This document shows, in pieces, positions 3,988 through 58,380 of a stretch of DNA of 64,000 nucleotides; the first letter of the stretch is position 1; every line of letters starts with the position of its first letter. The position numbers and the translations under genes are program-made. This stretch comes from Pocillopora damicornis (lineage: Eukaryota), in contig NW_020843829.1 of NCBI RefSeq assembly GCF_003704095.1, forward strand, positions 310,001 through 374,000, given 5' to 3'. Below the pieces are notes generated by a model. That model worked only from the letters and a program-made list of their open reading frames with translations, did no database searches and was not told where the DNA came from.

Positions 3988-5061
3988 CTACTGAAAATCC
4001 GTAGTGGAGCTGTTCAGCGTCAAATCACGATGTATTTCTATCGCAGCGGTTCTTTTTACGCTGTTATGACGGACGTTGTGCAAAGCGAAGGTCGAATGAC
4101 TTTTGGTGCGACTTTTACGTCGACTTTCAAATTCAAATTTACATCTGATAATCTCTTTAAAAGATCTTCGGAACTGTCCGCTGTAGAAGCAGTACAAAAT
4201 TGGATTGGCTGCCGAATTTCCAAATATGATCAGTTGCGTGAGTTTCCACAGTTCGTTTCCCTCGTAGACGTAAAAGTAGCGCAGTGCGCGAACGATGATA
4301 AACGGAGACCAACAGCAAAAAAAGACCAGGGTCACTACAGCTAACATCTTCGTTACTTTGTGTTGTTTTGACTCGACGGATCCCACTCCTGAAGTGTTCT
4401 TGACGTGCGTTTGCAGAACGCGCAAAATTTTCGTATGAGCCCAAATCATGAAAACTAAAGGGCAAATGAATATGAAAATTGCTTGAAGGATATAGTAGGT
4501 TTGCCTCCCGCTGTCACCCCAGTTAGTGTTCAAACAGAGCTGCACACCGTTCACTTCTTTCGTCGCGTACCCGTAAAATAAAGGTGCGCATAAAATAACC
4601 GACACAATCCACACAATTTTTATGACTATGGTGCGTTGCTCGATACCGCGATTTCTGGCCAGACTTGTCGATGTGACAGATCGCGATCTTTCATAACTGA
4701 TTGCTACTAAGGTTAGTATTGATGCGGAGTACGATATCTCGATTAGAGTCCCTTGAATTTTGCACACGGGATTGCCACCGGGCCAGTCACCCAGAAAGAA
4801 GTAGACGATGTCAAAAATGGAGAGAATGGCGAACAAAAGATCTGCAAGCGCTAGACTCGAGATGTAACAGAGAAGAATTGATTGTGATGTGCGGTATTTC
4901 TTGTAGCATGTCAACAGTGCCATAATGTTTCCAAAGAAGGCGAATGTGAAGAAAACAACATACAAGATGACATATCCTATAACCAGCGGTAAGGGATATT
5001 CTTTATCCACAACAGAGGGTTTTAAAGTGCTGTTCATCTCTGTGCTGTCATTTGCTGCCAT
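3988..5061 (-). CDS. Class A (rhodopsin-like) GPCR, neuropeptide/QRFP-receptor-like, single coding exon
   Basis: Seven hydrophobic segments. Motifs: GN (TM1), LALADL (TM2), C at the top of TM3, ERS (DRY variant), CWSP, NPILY. N-terminal sequons NDS and NST. First ATG is at 5061; the track starts at a TTG at 5067. Confidence 0.93.
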   Translation of the reverse strand: MAANDSTEMNSTLKPSVVDKEYPLPLVIGYVILYVVFFTFAFFGNIMALLTCYKKYRTSQSILLCYISSLALADLLFAILSIFDIVYFFLGDWPGGNPVCKIQGTLIEISYSASILTLVAISYERSRSVTSTSLARNRGIEQRTIVIKIVWIVSVILCAPLFYGYATKEVNGVQLCLNTNWGDSGRQTYYILQAIFIFICPLVFMIWAHTKILRVLQTHVKNTSGVGSVESKQHKVTKMLAVVTLVFFCCWSPFIIVRALRYFYVYEGNELWKLTQLIIFGNSAANPILYCFYSGQFRRSFKEIIRCKFEFESRRKSRTKSHSTFALHNVRHNSVKRTAAIEIHRDLTLNSSTTDFQ

Positions 5062-8000
5062 TCTCAAAGTGCTAGATTTCCAAAACGCCAGCTGCTAAAT
5101 TTTTAAACGTCAGGTGCTACTCCAAGGCCCTTTAGGGATATTTCGCCACTTTCAAATTTCTGTCAAGCCTCTGTTGAGTACCAAAGGTCTAGTAAAGCAA
5201 TCAAACACAACAGTTTGTTATCAAGCGGAAAAAACGCAACTAGTTGATTCGTATTTCTGTTGCACTGCCTCTCAGCTAATTAACAACGCACTGACCACAA
5301 CACTCTGAATTTGCAATTTCCTGCTCATGTATTTCTCCACGCTCTCTTGGGCACTGCGCTGTGATTGGATGGTCGTAGTGCCCTTAGACACACGATGTAA
5401 TCAAGGCGCGGCTCGTCTGCCCTCAAAATCACAGCCATTGTGGTGTGGAGTTCGTGACCGGATGTACGGTTAGTGATTTCTAGTAGCTAAACAAGACGTC
5501 AACAAGTCTATGTCAATCTTTTAGCTTCAGCCCACACAAAATCTTTATCTTTTAGACTTCCTCATAATATATTTCGACGACGTTCCGTCCTCTGTCTTCT
5601 TCGTAGAAGCACGCAAGAGGCTTGTTTTTCAAAAGTTAACACAGAGGTGGAGACAAACACAACCTTCAAGTTGTTTTCCGGAAGTCACTATTTTTAAATT
5701 TTTATTACGGATTTTCCTGAGTGACATCATTATAACAATGTCCGTCACGCACTTTGATTACTAGCGACAGGCAAATCTATTTGAAATACGAAGGAATTAT
5801 TGCAAGAAAGCCCAATGGAATTTCTAAGAGCTTCCTACACTACCAATAAAGCTGAATGACTTATTTTTAAACTTCAAAAAGCCACAAAGAGCTTACAGCA
5901 AAATAAACACGAGAGAAATTCTTGAGTATGTCACGTAATCGTGGCTTAAGCTGAGTCATGGCATAGCGCGTGGGTGAGCACGTAACAGGCTTGAATATTA
6001 AATGTCTGTCCTTTTCAAGAGCCCATCAGAAAAAACGTAACATATAAACAAAACAGTAAGAAATATCATTTGACGACTGATAAATTAATCATATTTGTGC
6101 GAGAAAATCAACTACCTGAAAATCTTCTCCTAAGGATATTTAAAGTTGGCAGCCAATATAATCTTGATTACCGAATCAATGCAGTTAATTTATGGTTAAG
6201 ATCGTTATCTAACCTTTATAATTAGTAAGTCTTAATTTTCCCCTTCTGTTTTGTTTTTTCCTTTTGTTTATTTCTACATTTATGTGAGTTTTTTATTTTT
6301 CCAATCATAGTAGCTTGTTGATATACAGCTGGTTCAATCTGACCTGAAGCAATCATTTGAGAAACTGATTTTCGTGCGTCTCTGAATTACAGAGGTTACG
6401 AACGCATGCTGTGACTAAATATTTAACTACGAAGGAGACAAAGAAGCATCATAAAGAAAAATCTTAAAAATGCAGATAGAGGTAAAAAACATTTCCAAAA
6501 AGAATAGACATTGTTTTGATAGGTTTAGGTAGCCTATGGAGTTGTTAATTATTAAACTTATCTGACGATAGTGGCTGTCAAAATCCTCTTTTGATACTTG
6601 CCCAAAAGGTCCCGTCCTAATTCATTTTGGGGCTTTTAATTACAGTATTTAAAGGGCACAGTTGTACCAACGTTTGATCGAGGGGGAGGAGGTTGAATTA
6701 CATTTGAGAAATCAGGACTAAACTTCGAGACAAAACCCCATCACCACAAATTCCATGAGCGTGACTTTACACTGCATGAGGTATGTTGAACCGACGTAAA
6801 TCCTAAACAAGCAAACTTTCAATATCATATATTATGATAACATTTGTAATGTGTTGGAAAGATATGTTGATATAAAGAAATAATAAAATGTTTCTTTGAC
6901 GCCTGATAAGTAATCTGTTGGCCATGATATAAAGCAGATCATGCGTTGAGGCGAAGACTGGGCACGATTTCGCATCTCGCTGCTTTCCGGTTTTCCCGTA
7001 TCCGAGAGGATTGCCATAATCTAATTCTCGAGCAGTGGCTTGTTTTTTAGCCTATGTATTGACCATGATTGAACAAGTCAAGTCCCAGCCAATATTCAAT
7101 CGCCCTCTACTTGAGAGGCATAAAGTTATCTATATATCATTGTTAGCAAAAGGCGTCCTTCCATCAGTAACCATTCTCTTTGCACAAACAGTGGTTAATA
7201 CTTACTCATTAACCAGTTGCAAGCTCTTTATGGAGGAAGTTTTGAGGGCGCCAGGGAGGAACAAATACAGGGACCTCCCACGCGGCTCCCTCAATATAAG
7301 CGCCCCAATGTTTGCTCCAAAGGACTTCCAAAGCCCCAGACCAATTATGGCCGCCTAACACTTCTGACTGTCTCACTCACTTGCTCTGTCCCAGTTTGTT
7401 CTCGGGACTTAATTACAAGGAGCTGCAAAGTCCATTGTGATCGATCGGTATCTAATTACACAGAGATATGTTTTCCGTGTCTGTGATTTTCTAAATACCA
7501 GCTGTTATAATCGAAATGCTCTAAACTTATCGAAATTACACCGGGACAAGCCCACGTAGAAAAAAAGAGAACGATACTGCTTTTAAGTCCTTTGCAAACT
7601 GGAACACGGGACAACAAGGCGAAGGCGGAATGAAGCACTTGAAAGTCGGACCCGAGTGTCCAGTTCGGTTCCATTCATAAATTATATTGCTCCTTCACTT
7701 TTTTCTTGTAGAAACCGCTAAGATCTGATTAGTAATTTTCCCTTCTAGTTAATATATATTTACCTGTAAATTAGTTAGGAGAATTTAGTGTTCTATCAAG
7801 ATGATAAGTTTGTCTATTCTCATCACCTGCTCTATGAATGATGTATGTCTAGTGTCAAGTTTGCTAGAAACGTAGTCTTCTTCCGTTTGATAATTACCTC
7901 TTGGTAGAAGAGTAATTGCCCTTAATTATATTAAACTTGACCCCTATCAGACACTTAAGTGGATGTGGATTTACAATATTTTTTTCGATACGCCCTTTAG

Positions 8001-10126
8001 TTAACACCAGATAAGATCGTCTATCAACATAAAAATAATTATATTTTGCAAACACTGGATTGTTCTCTCGGTCTTAACGACAATATCTATATTGAAATGT
8101 GTATATGAGATGAATTGCTAGTACTTGAGCTGCTGGGATAAAATGGAACGACGGGATATCCTGGCTATGAATTTTAATTTCGTCGAAGAATGGTACTCTT
8201 TAGGATTTGAAATTCGTAACCGACTGATTTCTATATCGATATGAAAACTCATCACTACGGTTACCGTACGCGTGTGAGACAGAAGCATGTGCTTTTGTGC
8301 GAGATGAATATTGCTCGAAAGCTGACTGATAGAATATGATTGTAATGTTGATGTGTTTTTAAGAAAAATAATCGCGAAAAAATTATCAGATTAAAGTATT
8401 GATAAAGGATGCTTCGAAAGCCTAATGCACTAAAAATAAAGAGGCGAGTGAAATCTTGAGAGTCCATTAATAGTAGGGGTACGTAGAAGGTCGAAATTAA
8501 ACCACCCATGCAATACATCTTCTGTTCTTCATTGAAAGGACAGAACAGTATGGAACAAAGCGACATGGGATTTCCTTGGAAACAAAGCAAATTTAATGCT
8601 TGTTAAACTACATCACATTGTTTATTATCGTTCATTTTTTTCACTCCTGTCAGCAGAAACTAGATGTGGTCTTTATTATGAAAGTTTTAACTTTAGACGT
8701 GAGTTATTCAAATGTGGTTTGTGATTTTGGTGCCATTAAAATCCATCTCCACTAGGGCACAGAAGCTATCGGACTCCGACTCTAACCTGAGTCCACAATC
8801 CAGAATCTAAATCAAGATTTACCTTCCGAAATTGCGACCAAAAGGGAACATGCATCGTGTCAAGAAACATTTCGTATTTGATTGTCGAATAAAGAAAGAA
8901 GTAATCACTTGCCGCCAGCGTAACCAAAACAGTTCTGGATAAAAGCAAATATACATTTTTTGATAACTGCGTACTGACGTGACGCAAGCAGTATTTGAAC
9001 CAGTCAAATAGCAGCCGGATCTCATATGTCCGGCTTACCAAAGCAATCATGTTTCCAAAAATAATTTTGTTCAAGACTAAAAAATTGGAAGGGGTCAACA
9101 GCTCACGAGCAACTTCTGTTCCCCAATTTTCTTGTTCTTTTTCGAAGGTTATCAGTGTAATTTATTTAGATTTCAAGTCAAAGCTTGACATCTATTCCGT
9201 TTGTTTAAAGTGCATAAATAAATAATTAACATCCTTTTTTTCCCAGTCGGTGAGAAAATCTTGTATGGTAGCATGTGCAGAACTGAGCCACTTACGAAAG
9301 AACTTTGCACCAAATGTGAAACCTCTGATTAACTTTTTTGATTTTTCACTGTCAGCGAAAGGGTAATAAATTTAACAAAATGGCTTGCTTTTGTTCTCTT
9401 TAAGTAGGTAAAAGAAAAGCGTTAAACCTTTATCCCATTCGCTAGTCTCCGCAAATGGTGGGATGACAAAATATCGCGCGAGATAATCAGCTAGTCTTTC
9501 TTTACTTTACAAATGATTAATTACCATAACGAGTTTGCAAGACATCTGTTTTTCTATTTTTACTTTAGGGTGGTCACGACCAAGAGATTGGGTTGAAACT
9601 GTTTTTCGTACTCTCTGTGCCGTTTCAAATGTTATTTATTATTATGTATTTCCTATTTATACGAAAAGTAGCTATCTTTGTCAATCTTTGTTTTAGTGCG
9701 TAAACAAACATTCGAATTTATACTGACGTAGACTTAAAAATCTGTACGCCGATGCCATTTTCCAACAACTTTCATTTACTCTGAGACGACAGGTGTCATT
9801 CAGAAAATACTGCAATCATTAACCTATCAGAATTTTTTATCATTGTTACAAAAAATGTTATAGTCTGTGTTTAAATTTTTATGACACTTGAATGATATCA
9901 TGATTCTCCGCGGAAAGCGTCAACAGTAAAGACAGAGGAACTAGAATTTCAAACTGATATTCGAGCATTTTGATTGCTGTTTACGTCATTGCTGGCCCTC
10001 CTAAGACCTCCTTGTGTTGATGAATTCCGCCTGTTAATTTACCAGCATCACGAAATAATTCAGTTGGATGTAGTAAATTCTACTGTAGAACCATATTTCA
10101 CACCAAATTCTACAGTCCAAGAGGAA

Positions 10127-11101
10127 ATGGCAAACGGTTTATCATTGAACTCACTCATGGGAATATTCTTCATGTGTTTTTACATTGTAGTGTATTCAAC
10201 CTCGAGTTTAGGGAACGTAGTGGTGTTGTATATCTGCGCTAAAAATAGTCGAAACACAGCCTTTCAACCTACTCGCACAGCATTTTTCAATCTTTACATC
10301 GCCAATCTTGCCATTGCGGACCTCCTTTTCACGCAGTTGACGATTTTTGATGCTGTTTACGCGATTCTCTACGAGTGGACCACAGGAGCCATTTTGTGCA
10401 AACTTCAGGGGTTTCTTGTCGAGTTATGCTACTCCGCTGGTATACTCACTCTTATAGCAATCAGCCGCGAGAGGGTTAAGTCAATCTCGGATTTACGGAT
10501 AAAATCGCGCATTCAGCGAGTCAAAGAAAGACGATCTCGCTCCATAATCGTGTGGAGTCTGGCCATACTGCTATGCTCCCCTCTTCTCTACGCGTACAAT
10601 TTGACGGAAGAAACTTCAAACGGTAACAGCGTCATACGCTGTTTAAACGACGCATGGTCGCACCTCGGAAGGCGAATTTATTACAGTTTAACCGGGGTTA
10701 TACTATTCTTTACTCCTCTTTTAATAATGATATGGACGCAGTTGAAGATCAAACGCGTTTTTAAATCGCAGGTCGCACCAAATCAACAAATCGCTCTTTC
10801 AATGCGAGCGCGCCAAAGAAAAGCTAGTCGAATGTTGGGAGTAGTCACGATAGTCTTTTTCGCGTTTTGGTCTCCTTTCATTTTCACTCGAACACTTCGT
10901 TATTTTAACTGGTATGAAGGGGAATTAATTTGGAGACTAAGCCAGTTATTAACCATAGCTTCTGCTGCGGCAAACCCTTTCATTTATAGTTTTTACAGCA
11001 CACATTTCAGGCTGTGTATAAAGAGGTTTCTAACTTGTAGATGTGGGCTAATGGCTGCAGTTGACACTGGGGACAATTCTACTGTGAATTCTCTGTATTA
11101 A
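10127..11101 (+). CDS. Class A GPCR, paralogue of the 3988-5061 receptor; 5' end uncertain
   Basis: Motifs GN, LAIADL, CKLQG, ERV, FWSP and NPFIY. Shares R.LRYF..YEG...W.L.QL with the other receptor. First in-frame ATG is 10127, but the frame is open upstream. Confidence 0.9.
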   Translation: MANGLSLNSLMGIFFMCFYIVVYSTSSLGNVVVLYICAKNSRNTAFQPTRTAFFNLYIANLAIADLLFTQLTIFDAVYAILYEWTTGAILCKLQGFLVELCYSAGILTLIAISRERVKSISDLRIKSRIQRVKERRSRSIIVWSLAILLCSPLLYAYNLTEETSNGNSVIRCLNDAWSHLGRRIYYSLTGVILFFTPLLIMIWTQLKIKRVFKSQVAPNQQIALSMRARQRKASRMLGVVTIVFFAFWSPFIFTRTLRYFNWYEGELIWRLSQLLTIASAAANPFIYSFYSTHFRLCIKRFLTCRCGLMAAVDTGDNSTVNSLY

Positions 11102-13904: not shown

Positions 13905-14280
13905 TTCGCAACCTATTTTGACTATTTCTATTTTCGGTCATTGGAATTCAAATAAGGCTACCTTTTTTGTATTAATTTGTGTAAAATTTGAAAACTTTCC
14001 TAACGAAAGATAAAATGATATAGGAGACGGATTTGGTAAAACAATTTAAAGCCTTTCATTTTCTCTTAGCTATGGTATTTATGGAATTCCCTTTTTCCCG
14101 TAGTATCTTATTCTCCAACAAATTTCGTTTTCTGGCAAAAAATTGTTATTCTGTCCTAAAAGTATCATGTCTGGCACTTTTGGGTTTATATTCTAAATAC
14201 ATAGTTAATTCAGAATGTCATACAACCGACTCTGTGAGATATGGTAGACGTTCGTCCAATCTCCCTTTTCCGTTATACCA

Positions 14281-14426
14281 TCAGAGAGTTATTCGCACGG
14301 CTACCACATCATTATCCTCTGGTGCGAGCTTTTTCAGACGGATAATCAGTCCATGATCTTGATACTCTTTTCCCACTGCAGGTCACCAACGGCATGCTGC
14401 ACAGTACCCAGATTGTCGTGACTAAG
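14281..14426 (-). pseudogene. Orphaned 3' TPR repeat of the STAND gene, separated by an insertion
   Basis: Reads LSHDNLGTVQHAVGDLQW, then after a 1-nt deletion KEYQDHGLIIRLKKLAPEDNDVV. It continues the 42-aa unit in register with the gene's final EHVDVA. Confidence 0.85.
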
Positions 14427-14437
14427 TGCCACATCGA

Positions 14438-14661
14438 ATAAAGGGGGTACGTTTCTATAGAAATTGTGGTGCTGCGTCGGTGGGAGAGTATAGCAGGTAA
14501 TTTAGTGATAACAACTGAGTTGAAACGTTAATTGGCCACCGTAAGGAGTGAAAAGGCTGACAAAGGGCTGTCCTTTGGGCTCGAAACGTCAGCCTTTGCA
14601 CTCTTTACGGTGGCAAATTAACGTTTTTAACTCAGTTGATAACACTTAATTACCTGCTCTA
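14438..14661. mobile_element. 224-bp Penelope-like terminal-repeat insertion with fold-back structure and degenerate hammerhead core
   Basis: 11-bp TSD TGCCACATCGA at 14427-14437 and 14662-14672. Inverted arms of ~72 bp at ~14490-14561 and ~14588-14661. Core ctgacaaagggc...gctcgaaacgtcag. Same family as 47919-48077. Confidence 0.85.
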
Positions 14662-17600
14662 TGCCACATCGACATGTTCAAGTCCGAGAATTTTCAGACG
14701 AATGGCAAGTGCACGATCATGACATTCTTTCGCCCGCTGTTGGTCCCCAAGACCATAATGCACAGCACCCAGATTATTGTAACTATTTGCCACATTTACA
14801 TGTTTAGGTCCGAGCTTTTTCAGACGAATGGTAAGTGCACGATGATGATATTCTTTTGCCTGCATCAGGTTCCCGAGACCATGATACACAACACCCAGAT
14901 TATTATAACTGTTTGCCACATCGACATGTTCAGGTCCGAGCTTTTTCAGACGAATGGTAAGTGCACGATCATGAAATTCTTTTGCCTGCTGCAGATCGCC
15001 AAGATCATGATGTACAGCGCCCAGATTATTGTAACTATATGCCACGATGACATGTTCAGGTACGAGCTTTTTCAGTCGAATGGTAAGTGCACGATCATGA
15101 CATTCTTTTGCCTGCTGCAGGTCACCAATGGCATAGTGTACAGTACCCAGATTATCGTAACTGTATGCCACATCGACATGTTCAGGTCCGAGCTTTTTGA
15201 GTCGAATGGCAAGTGCACGATCATGACATTCTTTTGCCTGCAGCAGGTCACCAAGATCATGATGCACAGCACCCAGATTATTGTAGCTATATGCCACATT
15301 GACATGTTCGGGTACAAGCTTTCTCAGACGAATGGTAAGTGCACGATCATGACATTCTTTTGCTTGCAACAGGTCACCAAGGGCGTAGTGTACAGTACCC
15401 AGATTGTTGTAACTATATGCCACATCGACATGTTCAGGTCCGAGCCTTTTAAGACGAATGGTCAGTGCACGATCGTGACTTTTTTTTGCCTGCTGCAGGT
15501 CGCCAAGGTCATGATGCACAGCACCCAGATTATCGTAACCATATGCCACTTCGATATGTTCAGGTCCGAGCTTTTTCAGACAAGTGGTAAGTGCACGATC
15601 ATGACATTCTTTCGCCTGCTGCAGGTGACCAAGGGCATGGTGCGCAGTACCTATGTAACCATATGCGTTTACAATGTCTTCGTCACCAAACACGTCGTCA
15701 CATTGAGTTAGTCTCAACGTTGCGTTGAAGTACCTTAATGCTGATCGGAATTCACAGTGTTTTTGGCAGGTGTGACCAAGAGTTTGGAAATAGTTCCGGT
15801 AGTCATTAGGAGTGGATGATCCGGCTTTTATAGCGTCAGTTATACCCTCTTCTGAAAAGAGACCATCGATTATCTCGCTCAATGTGACTAAATGAGGAAC
15901 AATGTTCTTGCTTCTGATAAGAGTATGTGAGTCATCCTCAACCAGGGCATGACCTATAACTTGGTAGAATGACAGAATAGCCCCATCAACGGCTTCAAGC
16001 TCTTTGTTTTCGGCGAAATTTTCCATGACAGCATTAATGACGTCATGGAAAATCTGGTGCACTCGCATGTAGACGCCGCTGTCATCCTCTTCAAATAACA
16101 GCAAAGAGCATTTGCAGATTCTCGTAGCAAGTATCTCAGGATCTTTAAGCTCTTCATTCACTTTGTTAAGATAATTTACAACAATCTCTAGACTCAAAGG
16201 ATGCGGTGCACAGACAGAAAGAAAATGAAAAGTGTGCTCCAAAACTTTATCGGTTGTGATCGTCTTCTTAACAGCAAGTGTTGTGGCTGCAGTCATGGAC
16301 TTTTTGTAACTTGGGTTACTTCCAGAGAGCATGGCTTCTGTTGTACTTCTCTTCCCTTGGTCCAATTTCTTTAGAAAGTCATCCCAGCCAAAATTGGGAG
16401 TTAATTTGTTCTTTCTTACTTCTCTCACATAGGTGGCAGCGCTTGCCAGGGCAAGTGGTTGGTAGTCTAATACACGAGCAACCTCTTTTTCCATTTCTGG
16501 GTCATTAAAACCAGAAAGCATTTCCAACAGAGAGCCGGCTTCATGAGGCTCCATACCTTTGCTGACTGGGATGTGTTGAATAAATGAGCCAGACGGCGGG
16601 ATAGACGCGGTGTCCTGTGTTGTTATCAACAACTGGCCCTTTGCGCACTGCCCATTTCCTGGATCAGGTAAATTACCGTCCAGATGAGACATGTTGGTGA
16701 CGTTATCAACTATCAGTAGCCACGATGAGTACAGCTCGATTTTCGTGCTGATCAGTGTCCTTAGACTTCTGATCTTCTCATCAATACTCAAATCTTTGGA
16801 GATAAGTGTGTTAGTAACAGCGTATTCTGGGCACTTCAGATGTCGAGCGAAAGTGGCGTACGATTCCATAAGTGTTTTAGAGTTTTCAGCATTCAGTGTC
16901 ATTACGAACGATGTACTTCCTTTGACCTCGTCAAAGAAATTGTTGGCTACAAGTGAGGCAATCTGCGATTTACCACTTCCAGGGTTTCCAGATAAGTACA
17001 AGTAACTTAATCCTGTGGAATTTTTCAGCGCTTTTAATTGTTCAATTATCTTAGATACATCGGAATCTCGATTTGCGACATCATGAGAAGGCTTAGGAGG
17101 AAGAATGCAAAATGAAGAAGCCTCGCTGTTTAACTGTTCTTCAAGGGTTTTCCTTTGTTGTTCTTTTTGCTGAAGTTCCTTTCCTTTTTCCTGCAATTTC
17201 TTGTTGTTTTCCTGAATTGCTTTCTCTTTTTCTTGAAGATTTTTGTCTTTCTCCCGAACTTCTTTCTCTTTTTCCTGAACTTCTTTTTCTTTTTCCTGAA
17301 CTTCCTGCTTGAGGTCGTCCACCTTCTTCAAAACATGTATCAACTGCTCAGTGGGAAAACATGTTTGGGTTTTTACGTCTTGAATTTTCACAATAGAAAG
17401 ACCGAGAGCTAAAAATGCATTTTCCACTTTGCTAATGGCATTTTGAAACTCTACGTCTGAGAGGTGACCTCGTGCGATATGAGCGAACTCTTCGTTCCGA
17501 AACAGCCTGAGTTTATCCACATTTGACCGGACGACTGGATTGAGACTATGGATGCAATCGGAAAAAAGAATGGCGTAAAACAGCATGGTGCAGTCCCACT

Positions 17601-17850
17601 CAGCTCTATTGCCTTTAGTCATGGTTGTTAATAGACGTGCATGCTTCTTTTGGTTCCGTAGCGATTCGCCATTCCAGAAATCCATTCCATTTTTGGGATC
17701 ATCTTTCCATTCTCCTAACGTGGCCTTGTATCGACTATCCCATTCTTGTTTGAAGATTTCTCGCAGTCCCTCGGTCAAGATGTCAGTGGTAACGTAACAA
17801 ATCCTGAAGTAGTTTAGTTGATCTTCACTGTATTTCACTGAAGAGGCCAT
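14659..17850 (-). CDS. NLR-like STAND protein: DZIP3-like HEPN + coiled coil + NB-ARC-type ATPase + TPR array
   Basis: HEPN motif RNEEFAH. Heptad repeat EVQEKEK. Walker A GNPGSGKS, Walker B LLIVDN, LLITT, YQPLAL (GLPL-like), VHQ (MHD-like). Eight 42-aa TPR units (first one degenerate). Probable start MASSVKY at 17850; upstream 'FSFFK' is a polypyrimidine tract with AG at 17892-17893. Confidence 0.9.
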   Translation of the reverse strand: MASSVKYSEDQLNYFRICYVTTDILTEGLREIFKQEWDSRYKATLGEWKDDPKNGMDFWNGESLRNQKKHARLLTTMTKGNRAEWDCTMLFYAILFSDCIHSLNPVVRSNVDKLRLFRNEEFAHIARGHLSDVEFQNAISKVENAFLALGLSIVKIQDVKTQTCFPTEQLIHVLKKVDDLKQEVQEKEKEVQEKEKEVREKDKNLQEKEKAIQENNKKLQEKGKELQQKEQQRKTLEEQLNSEASSFCILPPKPSHDVANRDSDVSKIIEQLKALKNSTGLSYLYLSGNPGSGKSQIASLVANNFFDEVKGSTSFVMTLNAENSKTLMESYATFARHLKCPEYAVTNTLISKDLSIDEKIRSLRTLISTKIELYSSWLLIVDNVTNMSHLDGNLPDPGNGQCAKGQLLITTQDTASIPPSGSFIQHIPVSKGMEPHEAGSLLEMLSGFNDPEMEKEVARVLDYQPLALASAATYVREVRKNKLTPNFGWDDFLKKLDQGKRSTTEAMLSGSNPSYKKSMTAATTLAVKKTITTDKVLEHTFHFLSVCAPHPLSLEIVVNYLNKVNEELKDPEILATRICKCSLLLFEEDDSGVYMRVHQIFHDVINAVMENFAENKELEAVDGAILSFYQVIGHALVEDDSHTLIRSKNIVPHLVTLSEIIDGLFSEEGITDAIKAGSSTPNDYRNYFQTLGHTCQKHCEFRSALRYFNATLRLTQCDDVFGDEDIVNAYGYIGTAHHALGHLQQAKECHDRALTTCLKKLGPEHIEVAYGYDNLGAVHHDLGDLQQAKKSHDRALTIRLKRLGPEHVDVAYSYNNLGTVHYALGDLLQAKECHDRALTIRLRKLVPEHVNVAYSYNNLGAVHHDLGDLLQAKECHDRALAIRLKKLGPEHVDVAYSYDNLGTVHYAIGDLQQAKECHDRALTIRLKKLVPEHVIVAYSYNNLGAVHHDLGDLQQAKEFHDRALTIRLKKLGPEHVDVANSYNNLGVVYHGLGNLMQAKEYHHRALTIRLKKLGPKHVNVANSYNNLGAVHYGLGDQQRAKECHDRALAIRLKILGLEHVDVA
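14662..15690 (-). repeat. 126-bp coding tandem repeat (TPR units)
   Basis: Unit starts at 15567, 15441, 15315, 15189, 15063, 14937, 14811 and 14685. Confidence 0.95.
17135..17310 (-). repeat. 21-bp coding tandem repeat forming a coiled-coil linker
   Basis: EVQEKEK EVQEKEK EVREKDK NLQEKEK AIQENNK KLQEKGK ELQQKEQ. Confidence 0.85.
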
Positions 17851-18046
17851 ACTCACTTCGAACGATTTCTCAGTTAAGTTCGGTAACTGTCCTTTGAAGA
17901 AAGAAAACGAAATTTTAAACATTTCTGAGCAGAGAAATTGCTCAGAAGCCCTTTGAATTGTTTTGTCTTAAACTGTGCTAAAAATTTAAGTACTCTTGCT
18001 TTTTATAGAATGAGAGTCAGTGTTACAGTTAAACTTACAGCAGTGA

Positions 18047-19125
18047 CGCTCTCTCCAAATATATGGCTTAAGTCCGCACAACGAGAGTTACCGAGTTATA
18101 CCATATCACGAGTCAAGTTCGAGTCAACTTGGTTTTTTCCCTTTAGGATTTAAGGTTTCAATTTTCTTTGTCGAAATGATGCACCAGGGATACAAGAACA
18201 CCTAGTTTTAAGCTTTTTCGCAGCCGTTTGCGAGGGTTAATCCTGCCCTGGTTCATAGCTGCAATCAGAGAAGTAAAAATTTCCAAGCATCTTTGAGTTG
18301 TCCTCAATGATTCCACCCCTTTTAACTACACACACCTTAGGCACAAGTCCCACTTCAACGACAAACTGTCTTAACTGACTTAGAGTGCGAAAAAGAATCT
18401 CAATATTTCTCGCACTCCACCGCCATTTTGTTGCATTTACGGGCTCCCACTGAAAAACAGCACCACAAATTAACTGATTCTCTCCCACCCAGGCCGAAAT
18501 TGTGAAGAACAGATATAATTTTCCTCTGAGACGTTTGTTTCACCAGAATGATCTTGTCCTACTCTTCATGTTTTACTCATGAAATACAGGCTTCACTTTT
18601 CAAGATTTTCGAAGCATCACAAAGTTGTCAAGACGTCGTTACGCCACGCGAGGATTATATAAGGCATGATATATTCTGTGTTGCATCAGTGCCTGGAAAA
18701 AGACATTGAAAATAACGCGAGTCCATTTTCTTCGTAGTGAGCATCAGTTGTGGCTCTCACTAGTGTTTTAATATGTCTTGATGGACAATAACGGCCTTTG
18801 AAACGTTTCGTAAACTTCGCGACAATTCCGTAGCATTGTAACACCACTGAAGTAACAATTGATGATGCGGGAATTCAGACAAATTTGACCCAAGTAAATA
18901 ACCTACTGAATGCACGGCTTTGATTTTTGTTTGTTTTGTTTAGCTCTTCTTTTTTAAAAGCTACATTAATCATGTATTTTCTATCGCTATGATTTTATAA
19001 AAAGGGAAAAAAGTTAAGTTGGCTCAAACTTGACTGGTGACCCGAACTTGACTTAGGCTCACAGTTGACTCGTTACACGGTATAACTCGGAGCTAACGCA
19101 TACGTAAGCACATTTGACTGAGAGC
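18047..19125. repeat. Diverged inverted repeat pair (~18047-18142 and ~19003-19125)
   Basis: ccgagttatacc...acgagtcaa...gagtcaactt...ttttttccc is mirrored by gggaaaaaa...aagttggctcaaacttgact...ttgactcgt...ggtataactcgg. Confidence 0.7.
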
Positions 19126-21905
19126 ACATCGCTGGATTTTGCAGAATTTGGGTCTACATTATTGTCTCACTCGAACTTGAGGTATGACAAGTTGTTTTTC
19201 GTGATTATGGGGAGATCAGATACACCTAACGACTGCCTCACCCACCCCTCCCCTTTCACCTTGAACCTTTGATAAAAATTATCACTCTGAATAAAACGTT
19301 TGTTTCTTAACTTCTCATTAGGAGTTGAAAGGGTTCCTTTGCGAAAAAAATAATTAAAGGCAAAGCAAAAGAAAACTTAACAATGGATGGGCTGATATGT
19401 AATTGTAAGTAGCGAGACTGTACAAGAGTGAGTTTGAAAAAGCCCAGTTGGAAGGAAAGGGCTGTAGAGTAGAGTTCAGATCATGTCGAAGGACGGCCTA
19501 AGTTGTGATAAATCGTAATCATTTCAGTTGCAACCCGCAAACGACCTCAGCTAACTTATGCTCCTTTGGTTTGAAAAGTCTTTGTTTTATTTTTAAGGAA
19601 AAAATAATTTTATATCAACTGAATTTAGTGGAAACATCTTTCGATTCATTTCATGCCTTCACCTAAAGCACTTGTTTATGTTTCTCAAATGTGTCTGGTA
19701 TCATATTACACAACGTTGGCTCTCTATTAATTAGTTCTTTGGAGGAATACTCTATACTTTTATATCTCTCTATAGAGAGAACACTCTATTCTTATGGCAT
19801 GCGTTCATCGCTCACTGTGCTGCGACATTACACTTGCTTGCAGGTCGTCGACAAGGGCACGTCCCTGTTTCTCGTTGAGCGATGACTTAAGTATCAAGAA
19901 CACTCTCCCTGCTGCAGCAGGAGATGGTTGCATTAAGGGGACTTTTATCTTCGAACTATTTACCAGCGGTGGTTCCTAATATCGCTCTCAGGGGCTTACC
20001 TATTTTCTGCTTCGCGACCTTCTTCTTGTTTTGATATTTAAGCAAGGAGTGGTTAGAACCTATGCAAACTAACCGCTGACTGGCTAGGCGTTTTTCCAAG
20101 TCACAACTATAATGGAGAGACGGCATATATGTACAGAGCTTGGAAAATTGAAGTTTACTAAACGTCTTCAGAAGTACCAGAGTCAAAACACCCAAATCTA
20201 ACAAAATTATGCTCCTGGCGACAAAAAATGTAGATGAAATTGGCGGAAAATGCTAAATGAAACAGCAATTTTCTTTTGAAATAAGCGTAAAAATAAAAAT
20301 GTTCATTAAGCCAAGTTATACCGATCAAAATGCATTTTTGTGAAGGGCCTACCCAGTACCCGACATATTTAGTGGCTGCTCGCTGACTATGCCATAGTGG
20401 AGGCGGTGTTGGGATAACTAAGCGCAATCGCGCAAATACGTAACTGTAATTTGAAGTCAGCTAAAAAATCCTTTGAAGTCCCGCATACGATGTGTTAAAA
20501 TCCTCTGAATTTCCCGAAAGAGACTATCTAGCTTCAATATCATACTGATATGATCTAACTTTGCGAGTATCAGTTCCGGCATAAAGTTTAAAGGAGAGAA
20601 GTTCAAGCATGCCTCTGCCGTTCCGTGTACGTTTTACTAGTGGTTGCGATAAGCACAAAAAGTGTTGGAGTAGTTAAGCGCATTGAACTGTTAATTTATG
20701 GCACGGGTTTCACAAGTGGAAATGCACGGACATGTTTGACTTAAGAAGATAAACGCTCGTTTTCTATCAGTAAATAAGTAGATAAATAACATTGTTTGTT
20801 GATTTTATTAGTTTTGTAATGGAATATGGAGGGTTTTACGTCGCTTTGACGAGGATAAAGACATAATGTCAGCAATAACGAAAAAAATAGACTCAACCGG
20901 AAGTATTAGGCAAAAAATATACATGTTAATCAAATTTACATAATAGAATCCGCCCTGGGATGAATTTCGGGTTCGAGAATGTTCCAATCGAATGAATGTT
21001 GTACAATTTAGTAAACTTATGAGTAAAAAAACCTTTAATTCAAAATTCAAACCGGCATTGTTGGTTTCCATCATCTATCTCTGGATCTCTCATCTCTGCG
21101 TCTTTCGAAATACATCCGATAACCAAACGTGACTGAATTCAAACATCAAGTATTCGCTATAAATATAACAATGACGAAGGAAGCTAAGAACAGCAACAGC
21201 CGCGGGTAGAGAGCCCCTTCGAATTCCTCTCTTCCTCGCCTCGGCTCATGGCTAAATCTTTGCTAATGTGGTCTTAATCTCTCAGTGAAATAAATAGGAA
21301 AGGCGAAAAAAAAAAAGCCTCTACTAGACTGGCACTTGATAGAACAATGAGAGTTGCTATAACACATTTGCCAGTATTTGCCAGAAGAATCTTATGGCAA
21401 CGCTAATCGATAGAATTTAGAGGGAATTTACTTAAAGTTACTTATTTCAAACAACAAGTAACACAGAACATCAATGACTAAGCATCATGCCACTTTTAAG
21501 TCCTATTATTGTAACTTTATCGCTTCCGCAAAGTTTGCCTAATGATGTATAAACAATTGTGAAATGTTAATTCAGTAATATACGTCAATCAATGATATTT
21601 ATCGTACTTACTGTGTCGAAGTATTCCGGAGATGAACTGCAAAGCTGTAATACTATCACTACAGTAACGAATAAAGGTTCCTGTCACTAATCATCCAGAG
21701 TCGAAATTCGAAAGCGGAAGACGCTCAAGTCACATGACGTATGTCTATTGGAAGCCTATTCTAAATGTGCGTGGAACCGTTTATAATTAAAACTTATCAG
21801 AAGGAAAAACCATTGAAGCTTATGAAAGCTGGTTTTGAAAGTGACCCACAACATTTTGGACAAAGTATGCGTGATCCAAATATGCGTGACATGAAAAGAA
21901 AATTA

Positions 21906-22446
21906 ACGGCTCACGCGATTTCCTGTGGACACGTAAAGTTCTGTTGCGTGACAATGTCAAGCATTCTTCGAGCCAAAACGTTGAAACAACGAGCCTCAGC
22001 GCGAGACGAAAGCAAAGAGGTGAAAAGACATGGGCGAAAGAATGCTCAAAGCCTTATCGTAACCGTCCTTTGCTTGCCTGTTACAGGTCACCATATACCT
22101 TACCCAGATTATGGTTACTAACTCACATCAAGATTCTCAGGTCCGAGCCTTTTCCAATGAATGGCCATAGCACGGTCACGCGATTTCCTGTGGACACGCA
22201 AAGTTCTGTTTCGTGACAATGTCGAGCATTCTTCGTGCCAAAACGTTGAAACAACAAGCCTCAGCGCGAGACAAAAGGGAAGAGTTGAAAAGACATGGGT
22301 GAAAGAATGCTCAAAGCCTTATCGTGACCGTCCTTTGCTTGCCTGTTACAGGTCACCATGTACCGTACCCAGATTATGGTTACTAAACCCCACATCAAGA
22401 TTCTCAGGTCCGGGCCTTTTCATACGAATGGCCACAGCACGGTCAA
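21906..22446. repeat. Tandem duplication of a ~266-bp composite unit (TPR fragment + unrelated sequence)
   Basis: cacgcgatttcctgtggacacg occurs at 21912 and 22177. Each unit ends in TPR-type acaggtcacc...acccagattat...caggtccg. Confidence 0.9.
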
Positions 22447-22862
22447 GACGCTCCTTTACCACATCCACATTCTCAGATTCGCGCTTTTTGAGACATATGG
22501 CATTGTTCAATCATAACATTCTTCTACACGTTACAGGTCACAAGGTTATGGTACACAGTACCAAGATTATTGTAACTATTTGTCACGTCAACATGCTTAG
22601 ATCCGAGCTTTTTCAGACGAATGGCCAGTGCACGTTCATGACTCTTTTGCCGCCTGCAGGTCGCCAAGGCCATAAAGAGTAGCTCCTAGATGATTGTAAG
22701 TGGCTACAAAAAGGAACATGCTCTGGTTCAAGCCTTTTTTCAAGTACTTTAGCGCGGAGTTATATCGCTCTTTTGCCGCCATGAGGTCACCTGTAGCGTG
22801 AAATACACCACCATGATTTACATACTTTGTTGCAATGTCCAAATGCTCAGGTCTGAGCTTTC
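22060..22862 (-). pseudogene. Decayed TPR array related to the STAND gene
   Basis: DIATKYVNHGGVFHATGDLMAAKERYNSAL and ATYNHLGATLYGLGDLQAAKES, with frameshifts. The DNA ccgagctttttcagacgaatgg is shared with the intact array. Confidence 0.8.
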
Positions 22863-23795
22863 AGAGAAATAGTCGTTGATTTGCAATTCTTTGTCTAATT
22901 TCTCGCGCAATATCAGGACTCATATACTCTGCTCACCTCGAACTTAAGTTTCGACAATAGATCCAGTCAAGAATCTAAATCTCTTGATACCTTCGTCATC
23001 AACAAGAAGACTCGATCGCTTTCTTCCGCACTTCCAAACGTTGTATATCGCTGTGACATCATTTTAGAAATAAAATTCTAACGAGAACACGATAACTCGC
23101 TAATTAATGCGATTTACAACATTTTGGTGACTGGTCAATGAGGCTCATTGTTCTTAGCGACCCATAAATTGTGCGGAATTACGTTCATTTTGGAAAATTA
23201 ATTACTTTAGGTTGGCGATTACAGCTGCAGTAGCCATAACAACCGATATATACACCTTCGCCGTGCTCTACCTTCGTCAAGCATCAACATGTATACAACC
23301 CCACAGTATCTCTACATGAGTTATGACGGAAGGAAGCCAAAAGTTTTTCCCATAAACAACTGATGTAACAAGAAAATAAAATAAGTTGAAGTTCACACAT
23401 TATCGACATTCACTGAAGGAAGAAGAACTGAGAAACGACAGAGAACAATACAATGAAAGGTGGTGTTTGATTGTTTAACAGTTTCTGCAGTAACATAATA
23501 TCATTGTATTTACAATAAAATTAGCCCTTGAAATCAACCTGTATTTAACAAGGTAAACCTCAATCACTTCTCAGAATTACAATTTTTTCAGCTGAGATTT
23601 CTGTTCAGTGGTCAATGATGTCAGGTTTCCGGCAGAAAAAAAAGAAAAATTCGCAAAAATAACAACAATCTTAAAAAAGTATGGCTCAGACAGTTCCATT
23701 TTTAGAAGATTCTCATGAGATGATAATAATAATTAAATTAAAAAACCGTTAGAGCACTCACAGAAACTTTGTTTAATTAGCAATTTGATACATAG

Positions 23796-28092: not shown

Positions 28093-28272
28093 CTTGCTTC
28101 CTTTTCTCAAAATGTCCGTCTTCAATGGAGTAAACTTGATTTGTAATTCTTGTTGCGGGAAGTCCTGGAAAACAAGCCGACGTTCCTAAGCAACAGCTGA
28201 TCAGGTGGGTCATTACAAATTTGAGCCGATTGTTGCTATGGAACTATCAGCGGTAATACATCTTAAACTAAG
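28093..28272. promoter_or_regulatory. Bidirectional promoter with two RFX X-box-like sites
   Basis: GTTCCTAAGCAAC at 28182-28194 and GTTGCTATGGAAC at 28232-28244, lying between divergent ATGs 180 bp apart. Confidence 0.65.
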
Positions 28273-29346
28273 ATGGCGGACGATTCTATCCATATGAGTG
28301 TGGTTCAGATTGGTGAAAGAAAATTACGGTTTTTGGAATGGGCAACGACAGACGACACGATTTCAAATTCTCAAGAGCAAAAAGATAACATTCTTTTATT
28401 TCTTGGGGCTGATGTGCTATCTGGGTGTTCTATCGCTGTATCTAACTTACCAAGGATGCATGCGAAGTTTTCCAAGCAAGGCCTAGCTGTTAAAGTTAAT
28501 TTCCCTAATTCTCTTCGATTGCATGGCATCCATGGCTCTGCTCGTGGTGTTTGGTTCTACTCAATTCAAGGCCTTTTCAGAGTTTGCTTTGAGTATTACA
28601 ATCGCGAGGAACAACTAGAATGCCTAACAAAGCTCTGCGCCTCTTGGAAGTTAAGATTTACAGACAAGCCATTTAGGCAAAGAGAAATTGAACTCAATTT
28701 TCAAGATACTCTCAAACAACAGGTGGAAATCCCTGCAGGCCCAGATGACGCAGATTCAACTGGACAGCCTTACTCGGATAAAAACGTTAACCCATCAGAA
28801 ATCACATCCACTAAAATAACGGAATCTGATGGCAACATTTCTCACTCGCCTGCATCAGGTTCTTTTTATCACGGATGCATTACAACACCCAACTGGAAGC
28901 GATACATGAAAGAAATCGAGAGAATTTCGAAAGAAGCAGATCATTGTGACTTTGAAGATCTTCTTGACACCATTATTAGAATTTTAAAGGAGTATGAAGT
29001 TCAAACAACTCCTAAACAAACTGGATTATCAGGAGTACTTGTAGCAGTTAGCAAATATCTTGGTGATGAATTTAATAGACTCCAGCTTGAAATCAGTGAA
29101 AGAGTAACCGAGTTCAAGAAAAGGCATATAACTTCAATTGATAATCTTCCCCCATCATCGATTCTTGTCAAAGAACTTTTCCCTGAGTGTATGCAGGTTT
29201 TATTGTTGAGTTGGATGGGAAGCAGGGATGGTGGACAAGACATGAACAGCATTGTGCAAGTGATATTAGAACTTGTGAATATGAGCCTGGTTTCAGGTGT
29301 CGCTCATGTCTTGTATTCTAGGTTGATACAAACTGATACAGTTTAA
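28273..29346 (+). CDS. Uncharacterised 357-aa single-exon protein
   Basis: Long uninterrupted ORF in AT-rich DNA with aagATGGCG start context. Globular N-terminal part, low-complexity linker, helical C-terminal part. No family recognised. Confidence 0.8.
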   Translation: MADDSIHMSVVQIGERKLRFLEWATTDDTISNSQEQKDNILLFLGADVLSGCSIAVSNLPRMHAKFSKQGLAVKVNFPNSLRLHGIHGSARGVWFYSIQGLFRVCFEYYNREEQLECLTKLCASWKLRFTDKPFRQREIELNFQDTLKQQVEIPAGPDDADSTGQPYSDKNVNPSEITSTKITESDGNISHSPASGSFYHGCITTPNWKRYMKEIERISKEADHCDFEDLLDTIIRILKEYEVQTTPKQTGLSGVLVAVSKYLGDEFNRLQLEISERVTEFKKRHITSIDNLPPSSILVKELFPECMQVLLLSWMGSRDGGQDMNSIVQVILELVNMSLVSGVAHVLYSRLIQTDTV

Positions 29347-48037: not shown

Positions 48038-48073
<36 letters not shown>

Positions 48074-48613
48074 ATTCCAAGATAGTGGTTAGGCACTACT
48101 TGAAAAAAACATGCAGTTGTTTTTGTTTCATATAAACTATCTTTGGGCAACAACTTGTCACAATTAAGGCTATTTGTGACTGTATAAGAACATTTTTGTC
48201 ACTTTTTTTCTTCAGTCTTTTGCTAGATCACCTTTTCATCAGTTTTTCAAATGTGCCACTGAAAAAAGGTATAATTCTTTGCTAATAGCTAGTTTATTGT
48301 AAATGTTATTCCAACAACAACTCAAACATTAAAATTTTTTCATATAGAAGTTGTAATTATTATGGATAACCTTTGGTCTGTTGTCTTTGTTCCTTTACCT
48401 GTAACCATTCAGATACTTCCGTATACAAGTGAGACACCAATTCCTAACACTTTTCATCACAGTGATATCTTCAATGACTCTGGAATCCATTGGTTTCCCA
48501 GGGAAGTGCTGGCAACAGTACCAGAAACATTATGGAAGGATTGCGCTGAACCAGTGTACTGTGAAGATGACCCTGAAATTGTGACATCTGATGTAAACAT
48601 TTCTGTTTCATAG
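45526..48613 (+). CDS. SRRD: SRR1 domain-containing protein
   Basis: Exons 45526-45692(?), 45804-45844, 46253-46449, 46932-47027, 47163-47311, 47597-47643, 48413-48613. Peptides VCYGIG...ARYQFAFL, NEEGKR, FMLHCGKPLYN.VLWANW, DIFND. Confidence 0.9.
47919..48077 (+). mobile_element. Penelope-like terminal repeat with decayed hammerhead core in an SRRD intron
   Basis: ctctgaagaagggctaacacttgaaatgtcagc...gcagcaccacagtttctttagaaacttacccccttt. Matches the reverse complement of 14438-14561. Confidence 0.75.
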
Positions 48614-58320: not shown

Positions 58321-58380
58321 TTGCCGGTAGGATTTAAGCCCAACGGATCCGAACGGTATATAAATTTTCAAAGACGTGCA

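Follow-up and report, generated by a model that had tools for sequence, protein, structure and literature searches.

The window, i.e. the whole analysed stretch of 64,000 nucleotides of Pocillopora damicornis DNA, holds a real and transcribed coral gene whose single protein chain joins an N-terminal HEPN domain, an NB-ARC-type STAND module and a C-terminal TPR array, a design that had been catalogued earlier. The protein is probably a ligand-gated RNase receptor, with RNA cleavage, ligand and dimer all putative. Four features escaped the preliminary description: (i) a CaaX box in many relatives; (ii) the loss of this box by an insertion; (iii) a TTQ sensor-1 motif; (iv) a fixed order of 14 repeats in the closest alleles. 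The following features have been delineated:

22041..22908, minus strand: separate broken TPR relic 5' of exon 1 (frameshifts, stops, 265-bp duplication)
21612..21721, minus strand: non-coding exon 1, about 110 nt (X13 RNA contig; donor ACA/GTAAGT at 21612/21611)
17892..21611, minus strand: intron 1 (polypyrimidine tract and AG ahead of 17891; RNA contig ends)
14659..17850, minus strand: CDS P0001, 1063 aa, single exon (Met at 17850; ORF translation)
17350..17850, minus strand: DZIP3-like HEPN domain, residues 1-167 (PF18738, Atlas features, all-helical model)
17499-17479, minus strand: RNEEFAH motif, residues 118-124, R118-N119-x4-H124 (homologue alignment)
17119..17349, minus strand: heptad linker, residues 168-244, one long predicted helix with a 21-bp repeat unit (repeat scan and model)
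16015..17118, minus strand: STAND module of NB-ARC (AP-ATPase) type (Foldseek, Pfam, motifs)
16989-16966, minus strand: Walker A GNPGSGKS, residues 288-295 (motif)
16719-16699, minus strand: Walker B LLIVDNV, residues 378-384 (motif)
16623-16615, minus strand: sensor-1 TTQ (motif)
16464-16447, minus strand: YQPLAL, the GxP helical-domain motif (motif)
16062-16057, minus strand: winged-helix VH, within RVH; hxhH motif (motif)
15688..16014, minus strand: helical arm from STAND to TPR array, residues 613-721 (helical in the predicted model)
14662..15687, minus strand: eight 42-aa kinesin-light-chain-type TPRs and six residues of a ninth (repeat and profile analysis)
14437..14655, strand not assigned: high-copy hairpin-containing element of about 220 bp with target-site duplication, ending the ORF (genome copies and flanking duplications)
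14210..14436, minus strand: severed, decayed C-terminus with the last TPRs, capping helix and CaaX box CMTF at 14224-14213 (P0031 match)

The single coding exon of about 1060 residues given in the preliminary description has been confirmed at 1063 residues; it lies in one stop-free frame (17967-14659, minus strand), and a further non-coding 5' exon has been located at about 21721-21612. Residues 1-720 are 98% identical to a named Pocillopora gene model. Transcription was confirmed as well, the ORF being covered by RNA contigs in all four runs, from four studies. The X10 and X13 contigs end at 17890/17891, i.e. at the splice acceptor, and X13 has 110 letters past it, with variants at 21668 and 21686 at equal depth; RNA depth is at most 3.4 across 18.2-21.2 kb, compared with 12-59 inside the exon. 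From the contig ends and the donor, the joint between exon 1 and the coding exon can be placed with some likelihood. The coding sequence outside the TPR array is under purifying selection (19 synonymous and 15 non-synonymous variants listed, sites 480:1680; pN/pS about 0.23).

The reading of HEPN, STAND and TPR without a death domain is supported by profiles, fold matches and motifs. For the head, the sole Pfam match is PF18738, the DZIP3-like HEPN proposed earlier, with an E-value of 6.9e-5 and a score of 23.1 bits under the cut-off of 27; this family is matched at E<0.1 by 14 of the 16 own-genome rows, and three further HEPN-named families match too. The Atlas feature score to DZIP3-HEPN clusters is 0.95, with 204 features in common. 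HEPN domains are defined by Rx4-6H at the end of helix 3, a polar residue after the arginine and an acidic residue upstream (PMC3710099). In the predicted structure, all-helical with a mean pLDDT of 91, the R-x5-H motif closes helix 105-122, the polar N119 directly follows R118, and D86 is a conserved acidic residue of the domain. The N-terminal R-x5-H head and the conservation of R and H among paralogues were upheld: both are retained in 118 of 121 rows (window gene and 120 homologues) and are invariant in a further alignment (83/83), while among own-genome rows, with identity down to 25%, R, N and H show no change at all (16/16; of 19 loci retrieved, 4 were excluded for a gap, frameshift or stops). 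D86, R118, N119 and H124 are present in all 34 close-clade rows covering those positions, and the RNEEFAH motif is no chance occurrence. The closest solved HEPN structure, 2hsb, gives a weak match (Z 4.8, rmsd 3.4, 93 aligned) below that of a BAR domain (Z 7.5), and a profile search of solved structures recovered no HEPN. With the model of HEPN plus linker, Foldseek gave no match at E<=0.001 and a wide VIA fold search gave coiled coils alone, swamped by the long helix; since this helix was part of the query, both blanks carry no weight against a HEPN fold. The heptad helix spans 77 residues, with position a 79% hydrophobic and position d 85% Lys. The linkers of 116/121 rows vary in length by steps of 7, which also follows from slippage of the 21-bp unit.

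The STAND module has an Apaf-1-like NB-ARC fold according to its predicted model: the best Foldseek matches are Apaf-1 (E 1e-10), the STAND-TPR structure 6mfv (5e-9), CED-4 and plant NRC/ZAR1-type resistosomes, with SAMD9 (9zjs, E 2.6e-6) also among them. The expected NB-ARC profile was borne out by this fold and less so by Pfam, where the score of 16.6 bits is under the cut-off; paralogue L030, at 29.6 bits, is over it. A profile search of solved structures gave no STAND relative under E 0.05. The P-loop, Walker A and B, GxP and hxhH winged-helix features of NB-ARC membership are all present, and the Walker A and B motifs described as intact are so, with Lys and Asp kept in 35/35 close-clade rows. 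Pfam detected no NACHT or LRR in the protein, and TPRs stand in place of LRRs, so that by sequence it is NLR-like, outside the strict sense (NACHT plus LRR). The helical arm behind the module is the part least conserved in the close clade (84%).

The preliminary description overlooked that the sensor-1 arginine (TT/SR) is absent, being Gln in 120/121 rows. This bears on a different reading, in which the HEPN head is a binding domain for RNA or a partner, without cutting alone, and the whole protein serves as sensor or helper, signalling via another NLR or adaptor, its TTQ switch working without the usual nucleotide exchange. Avs7, in its active state, contacts ATP through the sensor-1 Arg (PMC13581612); no assay of a DZIP3-type HEPN was found in the literature searched, and distant members keep structural columns better than R/H (both retained in 112 of 143 representatives; R118 ranks 20 of 165 columns by conservation). 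Such a helper is nevertheless unlikely, as own-genome paralogues with 25-31% identity still have R, N and H unchanged at the surface, and TTE/Q occurs in active plant TIR-NLRs which remain ADP-bound (PMC8559963), making TTQ compatible with an active switch. TTQ is thus a variant which does not bar NB-ARC membership, and by analogy it may permit activation without the usual Arg-ATP contact.

In the preferred reading, a ligand-gated RNase receptor, the protein would act as a one-piece immune switch. A ligand would occupy the TPR groove, the NB-ARC would open and oligomerise, HEPN heads paired in the oligomer would form the RNase, and translation would be shut down or invader RNA destroyed. The heptad linker would be a weak zipper, pairing only once the NB-ARC gathers the chains. 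Autoinhibition and oligomerisation are assumed by transfer from known STANDs, and a two-motif active site likewise from known HEPN RNases; Las1 requires two juxtaposed HEPN motifs (bioRxiv 760058).

The TPR array has a DNA period of 126 bp (7.9 copies, 84% matches), and its repeats, previously called near-identical, agree on average at only 76% of positions in the protein and at 84% in the DNA. In each of the eight closest full-length alleles 14 repeats follow one another in the same order (8/8), so the array is not allele-hypervariable; the variable receptor of the preliminary description holds between repeats and paralogues and fails between alleles. Compared with this common 14-repeat allele, the window gene lacks exactly six, namely repeats 5-10, and long close-clade proteins have 4-16 repeats each. 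Six groove-contact positions, named beforehand from PMC1261162, vary about 2.5-fold more than the rest in the window gene (0.49 vs 0.20, p=0.006; the control includes buried positions). Positive selection on the groove is not supported, as groove pN divided by overall pS gives 0.68-0.92 across six genes and does not exceed 1. Variability of the groove is a general property of TPRs.

The close clade forms 34 clusters at 81-98% identity, whereas paralogue L030 falls in one 360-member cluster at 98% with no other match above 87%. This contrast, together with an NB-ARC and highly alike 42-aa TPRs as in fungal NLRs (PMC13449251) and Podospora repeats among the matches, would suit an allorecognition receptor for cell death, comparable to those het NLRs of fungi whose repeats are highly conserved, and triggered by colony contact and not by infection. 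It is very improbable here: repeat shuffling is absent among the eight close alleles, and with four named clade members on one 7.18-Mb record the diversity appears to be at least partly tandem paralogy. An orthologue of Nephrocystin-3 has been ruled out, as the label reflects a resemblance of the TPRs and the head is a different domain; with HEPN and NB-ARC scores under the Pfam cut-offs, such genes become labelled ‘uncharacterized’ or ‘Nephrocystin-3’.

A C-terminal CaaX box is carried by 42/113 and 41/107 long homologues (background below 3%), by 4 of 7 complete own-genome copies, by 2/18 NCBI-sourced models and by 5/48 distant representatives, the last ruling out a box universal in the family. 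On these HEPN-NB-ARC-TPR relatives the box was not found in the searched literature. The window protein ends in VDVA without a CaaX. Its ORF is ended by a high-copy element: out of 2612 candidates 40 were scored, and 39 of them proved to be further near-full-length copies; target-site duplications of 9-15 bp flank 7/7 copies read, with an exact 10 bp at the window insertion. Rfam gave sub-threshold hairpin matches alone, and the element is a putative small retroelement. Beyond it, the severed tail with its decayed box matches the intact C-terminus of P0031, ending CMIF (E 4e-13); the gene thus lost its ancestral predicted anchor signal by insertion. This match also ruled out the downstream relic as a second gene. 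RNA contigs of X1 and X5 pass from the tail into the element, and the tail is now 3' UTR. The 10 joints listed for the four RNA runs include none that splices out the element, contigs showing presence and not absence. Whether the insertion is present was assessed on proteins and RNA contigs alone, as a metagenome contig scan recovered no relative. The CaaX-bearing relatives are presumably prenylated and membrane-bound, and the window orthogroup cytosolic.

The lack of the capping helix and of six repeats in the window copy counts against the ligand-gated RNase reading. These losses, the truncated ORF with its decayed tail, a frameshift at 17595 in one RNA contig (X10), a CaaX retained in just 5/35 close-clade rows, many ending at premature stops, and the adjoining broken relic would also fit a duplicate in decay within an otherwise working family, which the retroelement would have cut and deprived of cap and anchor while transcription went on. 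Decay is, however, rather improbable, because 7 of the 8 full-length close alleles share the truncation, with open frames of 1302-1339 aa in all; two frameshifts and one stop, three lesions in all, fall within the tail of about 230 bp, and none within the 3.2-kb ORF; and pN/pS is low with catalytic residues intact. The fast turnover earlier read from flanking relics stands at clade level, with one of the two relics being the gene's own tail and that at 22.0-22.9 kb a separate one, in which no HEPN or NB portion was detected.

Among known systems, coral OG0000193 (Noel et al. 2023, PMC10236652), set beside the window gene by domain order, shares the three domains and their order; in the available part of that source, whose supplement tabulates HEPN/NB-ARC/TPR proteins for five corals, 15 of the 30 rows listed, of 53, are exactly HEPN / NB-ARC / TPR. 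The HEPN type is that of the DZIP3/hRUL138 family (Anantharaman et al. 2013), and this work already proposed RNA degradation tied to NACHT modules (PMC3710099). With this coral listing, the NACHT-HEPN RNases proposed in 2013 and the precedent of SAMD9, the implied novelty of the design falls away; the available portions of both accounts do not mention the family's CaaX, TTQ or heptad linker. A functional study was likewise not found in the literature searched, in agreement with the preliminary description. Human SAMD9/SAMD9L are alike in being STAND-TPR proteins of an animal that carry their own RNA nuclease and lack a death domain (PMC12680541), the SAMD9 nuclease being a tRNAPhe anticodon nuclease (PMC10246899). 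However, their nuclease, like that of bacterial Avs9, is AlbA_2/Schlafen-like and not HEPN, and they have additional SAM, SIR2 and OB domains and lack the 42-aa repeat array. Bacterial Avs/bNACHT proteins such as SeAvs7 share the order of enzyme effector, STAND and TPR sensor, and HEPN figures among the effectors listed for bacterial NACHT proteins. In Avs7 the ligand leads to a tetramer and an active nuclease (PMC13581612); it has a Cap4 DNase and a sensor-1 Arg, whereas the window gene has a predicted RNase, a sensor-1 Gln and a spliceosomal intron. Fungal NB-ARC-TPR NLRs (het-z, Podospora) share highly alike TPRs with variation at few positions (PMC13449251), but have other effectors and HNWD repeats quoted as 80-100% identical, compared with 76% in the window gene. 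NLRs of this kind are recognised by very similar repeats, by diversifying selection at hypervariable sites and by shuffling between alleles.

The boxes CTIL of OAS1 p46 (PMC8357416) and CVIS of ZAP-L (PMC8568172) are found letter for letter at C-termini of family members. In OAS1 p46/RNase L and ZAP-L, a CaaX sends antiviral RNA pathways to endomembranes, and the RNase L KEN domain is a HEPN (PMC3710099). OAS1 and RNase L keep sensor and nuclease on separate proteins without a STAND, and the window gene has lost its box; the likeness is possibly convergence, and no homology is claimed. A tentative further reading, itself doubtful, is that stony corals have a family of lipid-anchored one-chain RNase receptors, OAS1 p46 and RNase L in one chain, in which a geranylgeranylated TPR tail would keep the sensor at endomembranes, be they organelles of viral replication or the vacuole of the symbiont, the TTQ NB-ARC would oligomerise in an RPP1-like way and the weak heptad zipper would pair two HEPNs; the insertion would have fixed a cytosolic version in the window orthogroup.

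In nine of fifteen cnidarians surveyed, no other non-LRR domain accompanies NACHT as often as the DZIP3-type HEPN (PMC8260672), which is also frequent on coral NACHT/NB-ARC proteins (PMC10236652). With a single coding exon, expression and intact motifs, the window gene is a simple test case for this HEPN type. If the CaaX boxes of the relatives are used, these would be membrane-tethered NLR-like nucleases, a hint as to where corals detect invaders or police symbionts, and the anchored and unanchored natural paralogues within one genome would offer a ready comparison.

The gene under study lies in a stop-free frame on the minus strand, extending from 17967 to 14659, with a methionine at 17850 that yields a protein of 1063 residues. 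Its best named matches are Pocillopora gene models (84-98%), followed by other stony corals (54-61%), which points to a Pocillopora-like coral as the origin of the window. Among the domains expected from the preliminary description, TPR_12 was strongly matched by Pfam (E 2e-70), DZIP3-HEPN and the P-loop only weakly. Eighteen sequencing runs contain at least half of the sampled words (11/18 recorded as RNA), and five were examined for contigs. RNA contigs, which indicate presence and not level or induction, cover the ORF in 4/4 runs from four studies; the gene is transcribed, as the preliminary description required. The depth of at most 3.4 across 18.2-21.2 kb, versus 12-59 in the exon, argues against DNA carry-over.

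The contigs of runs X10 and X13 end at 17890/17891, directly past an AG acceptor. Beyond this acceptor the contig of X13 continues for 110 letters, and these, with variants of equal depth at 21668 and 21686, place exon 1 at about 21721-21612 (-), donor end ACA/GTAAGT; we infer the splice joint itself. Within exon 1, about 11 codons at 21700-21665 make up a short upstream ORF. At least 39 RNA variants fall over the ORF; among those listed, 34 are outside the TPR array (19 synonymous, 15 non-synonymous), and the ORF remains under constraint. One X10 contig (depth 12) carries a 1-nt deletion at 17595, within the HEPN coding region, which may mark a null allele that is expressed or an error in the contig.

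The N-terminal head is read by us as HEPN on joint evidence: (i) grouping with DZIP3-HEPN clusters in the Atlas (0.95); (ii) an all-helical predicted model (pLDDT 91) with the RNEEFAH motif at the end of helix 105-122, in agreement with the HEPN description in passages of PMC3710099; (iii) conservation of the motif, as given below. The structural match to HEPN 2hsb is weak (Z 4.8, rmsd 3.4), and the score of 23.1 bits against Pfam PF18738 falls below its cut-off of 27. R118 and H124 are jointly retained in 118/121 rows (this protein and 120 homologues) and in 83/83 rows of alignment A1. The search of the coral's own genome gave at least 22 matches (40 candidates scored); 19 stretches were fetched and 15 aligned with the window, loci L027, L031, L035 and L036 being excluded because they had a gap, stops or a frameshift. 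All 16 rows share R, N and H without exception, at identities down to 25%, so the conservation of R and H among paralogues holds. Among 150 distant representatives both residues are retained in 112 of the 143 covering rows, and several Trp/Phe columns outrank them in conservation. The RNase activity of the head is putative. Two further divergent HEPN groups with RN-x3/4-H intact occur in the genome, at L037 and L038 (G000:C2707, C883) and at L039-L041 (C3886, C4392, C2266). L039 and L040 carry a different NTPase exon downstream, the sensor-1 region of L039 being LTTRE; L039 and L041 have long TPR frames, apparently intron-split.

Residues 168-244, encoded by a 21-bp repeat, form a single predicted helix. 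Linker length ranges from 30 to 151 residues in steps that are multiples of 7 in 116/121 rows, and slippage alone would give such steps. In 111 linkers, hydrophobic residues account for 79% at heptad position a and Lys for 85% at position d, leaving one hydrophobic stripe only. This suggests a weak zipper that would pair upon oligomerisation; a plain single-helix spacer fits these data too.

The model of residues 245-762 (pLDDT 82) matches Apaf-1 (E 1e-10), an archaeal STAND-TPR protein, CED-4 and plant resistosomes, which makes it an NB-ARC. Walker A reads GNPGSGKS in 118/121 rows. Sensor-1 carries Gln instead of Arg in 120/121 rows (TTQ), in contrast to Avs7, where the sensor-1 Arg contacts ATP (passages of PMC13581612); TTE/Q occurs in RPP1, where it is reported to be associated with an ADP-bound active state (PMC8559963).

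The TPR array has a period of 126 bp, 7.9 copies and 84% matches at the DNA level, and its seven inner repeats share 76% protein identity, so that calling them near-identical was too strong. Groove contacts are made by TPR positions 2, 5, 6, 9, 12 and 13 (passages of PMC1261162). Between-repeat difference is 0.49 at these positions versus 0.20 elsewhere in this gene (p=0.006), 0.54 versus 0.19 in 30 close proteins and 0.52 versus 0.24 in 69 distant ones; such variability is a general TPR trait. No positive selection was seen at the groove in six genes (pN there over overall pS, 0.68-0.92). The variability ascribed to the receptor holds between repeats and paralogues, not between alleles of this gene: in the nearest 90% cluster (56 members), 8/8 full-length members among the 15 listed share a single order of 14 repeats. 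Of these, the array in the window comprises repeats 1-4 and 11-14. The homologue P0393 differs from the window protein once in the first 889 residues, and the RNA variants Y906N and I908L correspond to the absent repeat 7. The short array reflects either a collapsed assembly or an allele with a deletion.

The flanking genes are two GPCR genes and tektin; the features of the locus are as follows.

Features around the gene (window coordinates)
3988-5094 (-), rhodopsin-family GPCR gene, single-frame
9974-11101 (+), rhodopsin-family GPCR gene, single-frame
14437-14655, abundant hairpin element of ~220 bp, into which the ORF runs
22.0-22.9 kb, broken relic, TPR-only
28267-29346 (+), 359-codon frame without Pfam match, head-to-head with tektin, covered by a 2.6-kb X13 RNA contig
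47942-48077, partial copy of the ~220-bp hairpin element, near 48 kb
52679-53869 (+), family 92 glycosyltransferase frame
58036-59637 (+), ~480-codon frame following an N run, no Pfam match, glycosyltransferase-like by eye

The clade divides into 34 clusters at 81-98% identity, one 7.18-Mb record carries four named members, and the nearest other own-genome NB-ARC is 59% identical; the clade is thus arranged in tandem and changes fast, with few members in this assembly, and at clade level the fast turnover supposed for the locus is supported. The relics cited for it are partly genuine: the one at 22.0-22.9 kb is separate, and the downstream one is the gene's own tail.

Many relatives end in a CaaX box, a predicted C-terminal prenylation signal. 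Cys occupies the fourth-from-last position in 42/120 homologues (42/113 among those of at least 750 residues), divided into 37/86 distant and 5/35 close rows at backgrounds of 1.2% and 2.8%; these counts are not independent, since kin share labels. The 42 ends have I/V/L as penultimate residue in 37 and L/F as final residue in 36, and comprise 20 unrelated tails. A second search, with the outgroup paralogue L030 as its starting point, yielded 41/107 (background 1.7%), and in a FastTree of 128 rows the box is scattered across the entire tree, both sister rows of this clade included. Four of seven complete own-genome copies carry it (CKIL, CIIS, CSLL, CVIS). Its rarity in 48 long distant representatives (5/48) and 18 NCBI-sourced models (2/18) counts against generality; many rows lacking the box stop mid-repeat, which may reflect either genuine truncation or a fragmented assembly. 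In the close-clade proteins P0003, P0005, P0018 and P0022 the last TPR joins the CaaX tail (CVIF) directly, without a capping helix, and the box seems to be retained by a different route. L030 (G000:C1766:43992-46878) behaves as a conserved gene, with one 360-member cluster at 98%; ending in CSLL, it is a good counterpart, with predicted anchoring, for experiments. Searches of openly accessible literature, bioRxiv supplements excepted, showed no mention of CaaX for these proteins among the matches listed, and neither did the main text of PMC10236652; in one paper matching the searches, CAAX is a plasmid tag. The box is present on OAS1 p46 and ZAP-L, according to passages of PMC8357416 and PMC8568172.

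In the window gene the box has been lost to the element at 14437-14655. Behind it lies the old gene tail, with two frameshifts and one stop, ending in CMTF and matching the intact C-terminus of the homologue P0031 (CMIF) at E 4e-13. The loss is old and shared, because 7/8 close alleles terminate at the same point and RNA contigs of runs X1 and X5 span the decayed tail and the element. At least 39 more near-full-length copies exist (40 scored of 2612 candidates), and 7/7 copies read by eye carry variable target duplications of 9-15 bp, which are typical of non-LTR retrotransposition. Rfam gave hairpin matches below threshold only; the element presumably resembles Penelope-associated coral repeats.

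The class itself is catalogued. In PMC10236652, DZIP3-like HEPN heads are numerous, NB-ARC proteins mostly carry TPRs, and at least 15 of the 53 rows of OG0000193 (15 of the 30 listed) are HEPN/NB-ARC/TPR. Further sources list HEPN fusions and propose RNA degradation (PMC3710099), and describe HEPN-NACHT expansions (PMC8260672, PMC9646362), a HEPN active site built from two motifs (bioRxiv 760058), SAMD9 as an animal STAND-TPR nuclease (PMC12680541, PMC10246899), repeats of fungal NB-ARC-TPR NLRs (PMC13449251) and bacterial NACHT effectors (bioRxiv 2022.07.19.500537). Separate literature searches showed no functional study of this class among the matches listed, in line with the preliminary description. 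The gene is a real and expressed member of this class and, by a modest margin of belief, likely a ligand-gated RNase. What this analysis adds to the catalogued class is that many relatives carry a CaaX box, that retrotransposition removed it from this gene, that the switch reads TTQ and that the heptad linker has a single hydrophobic stripe.
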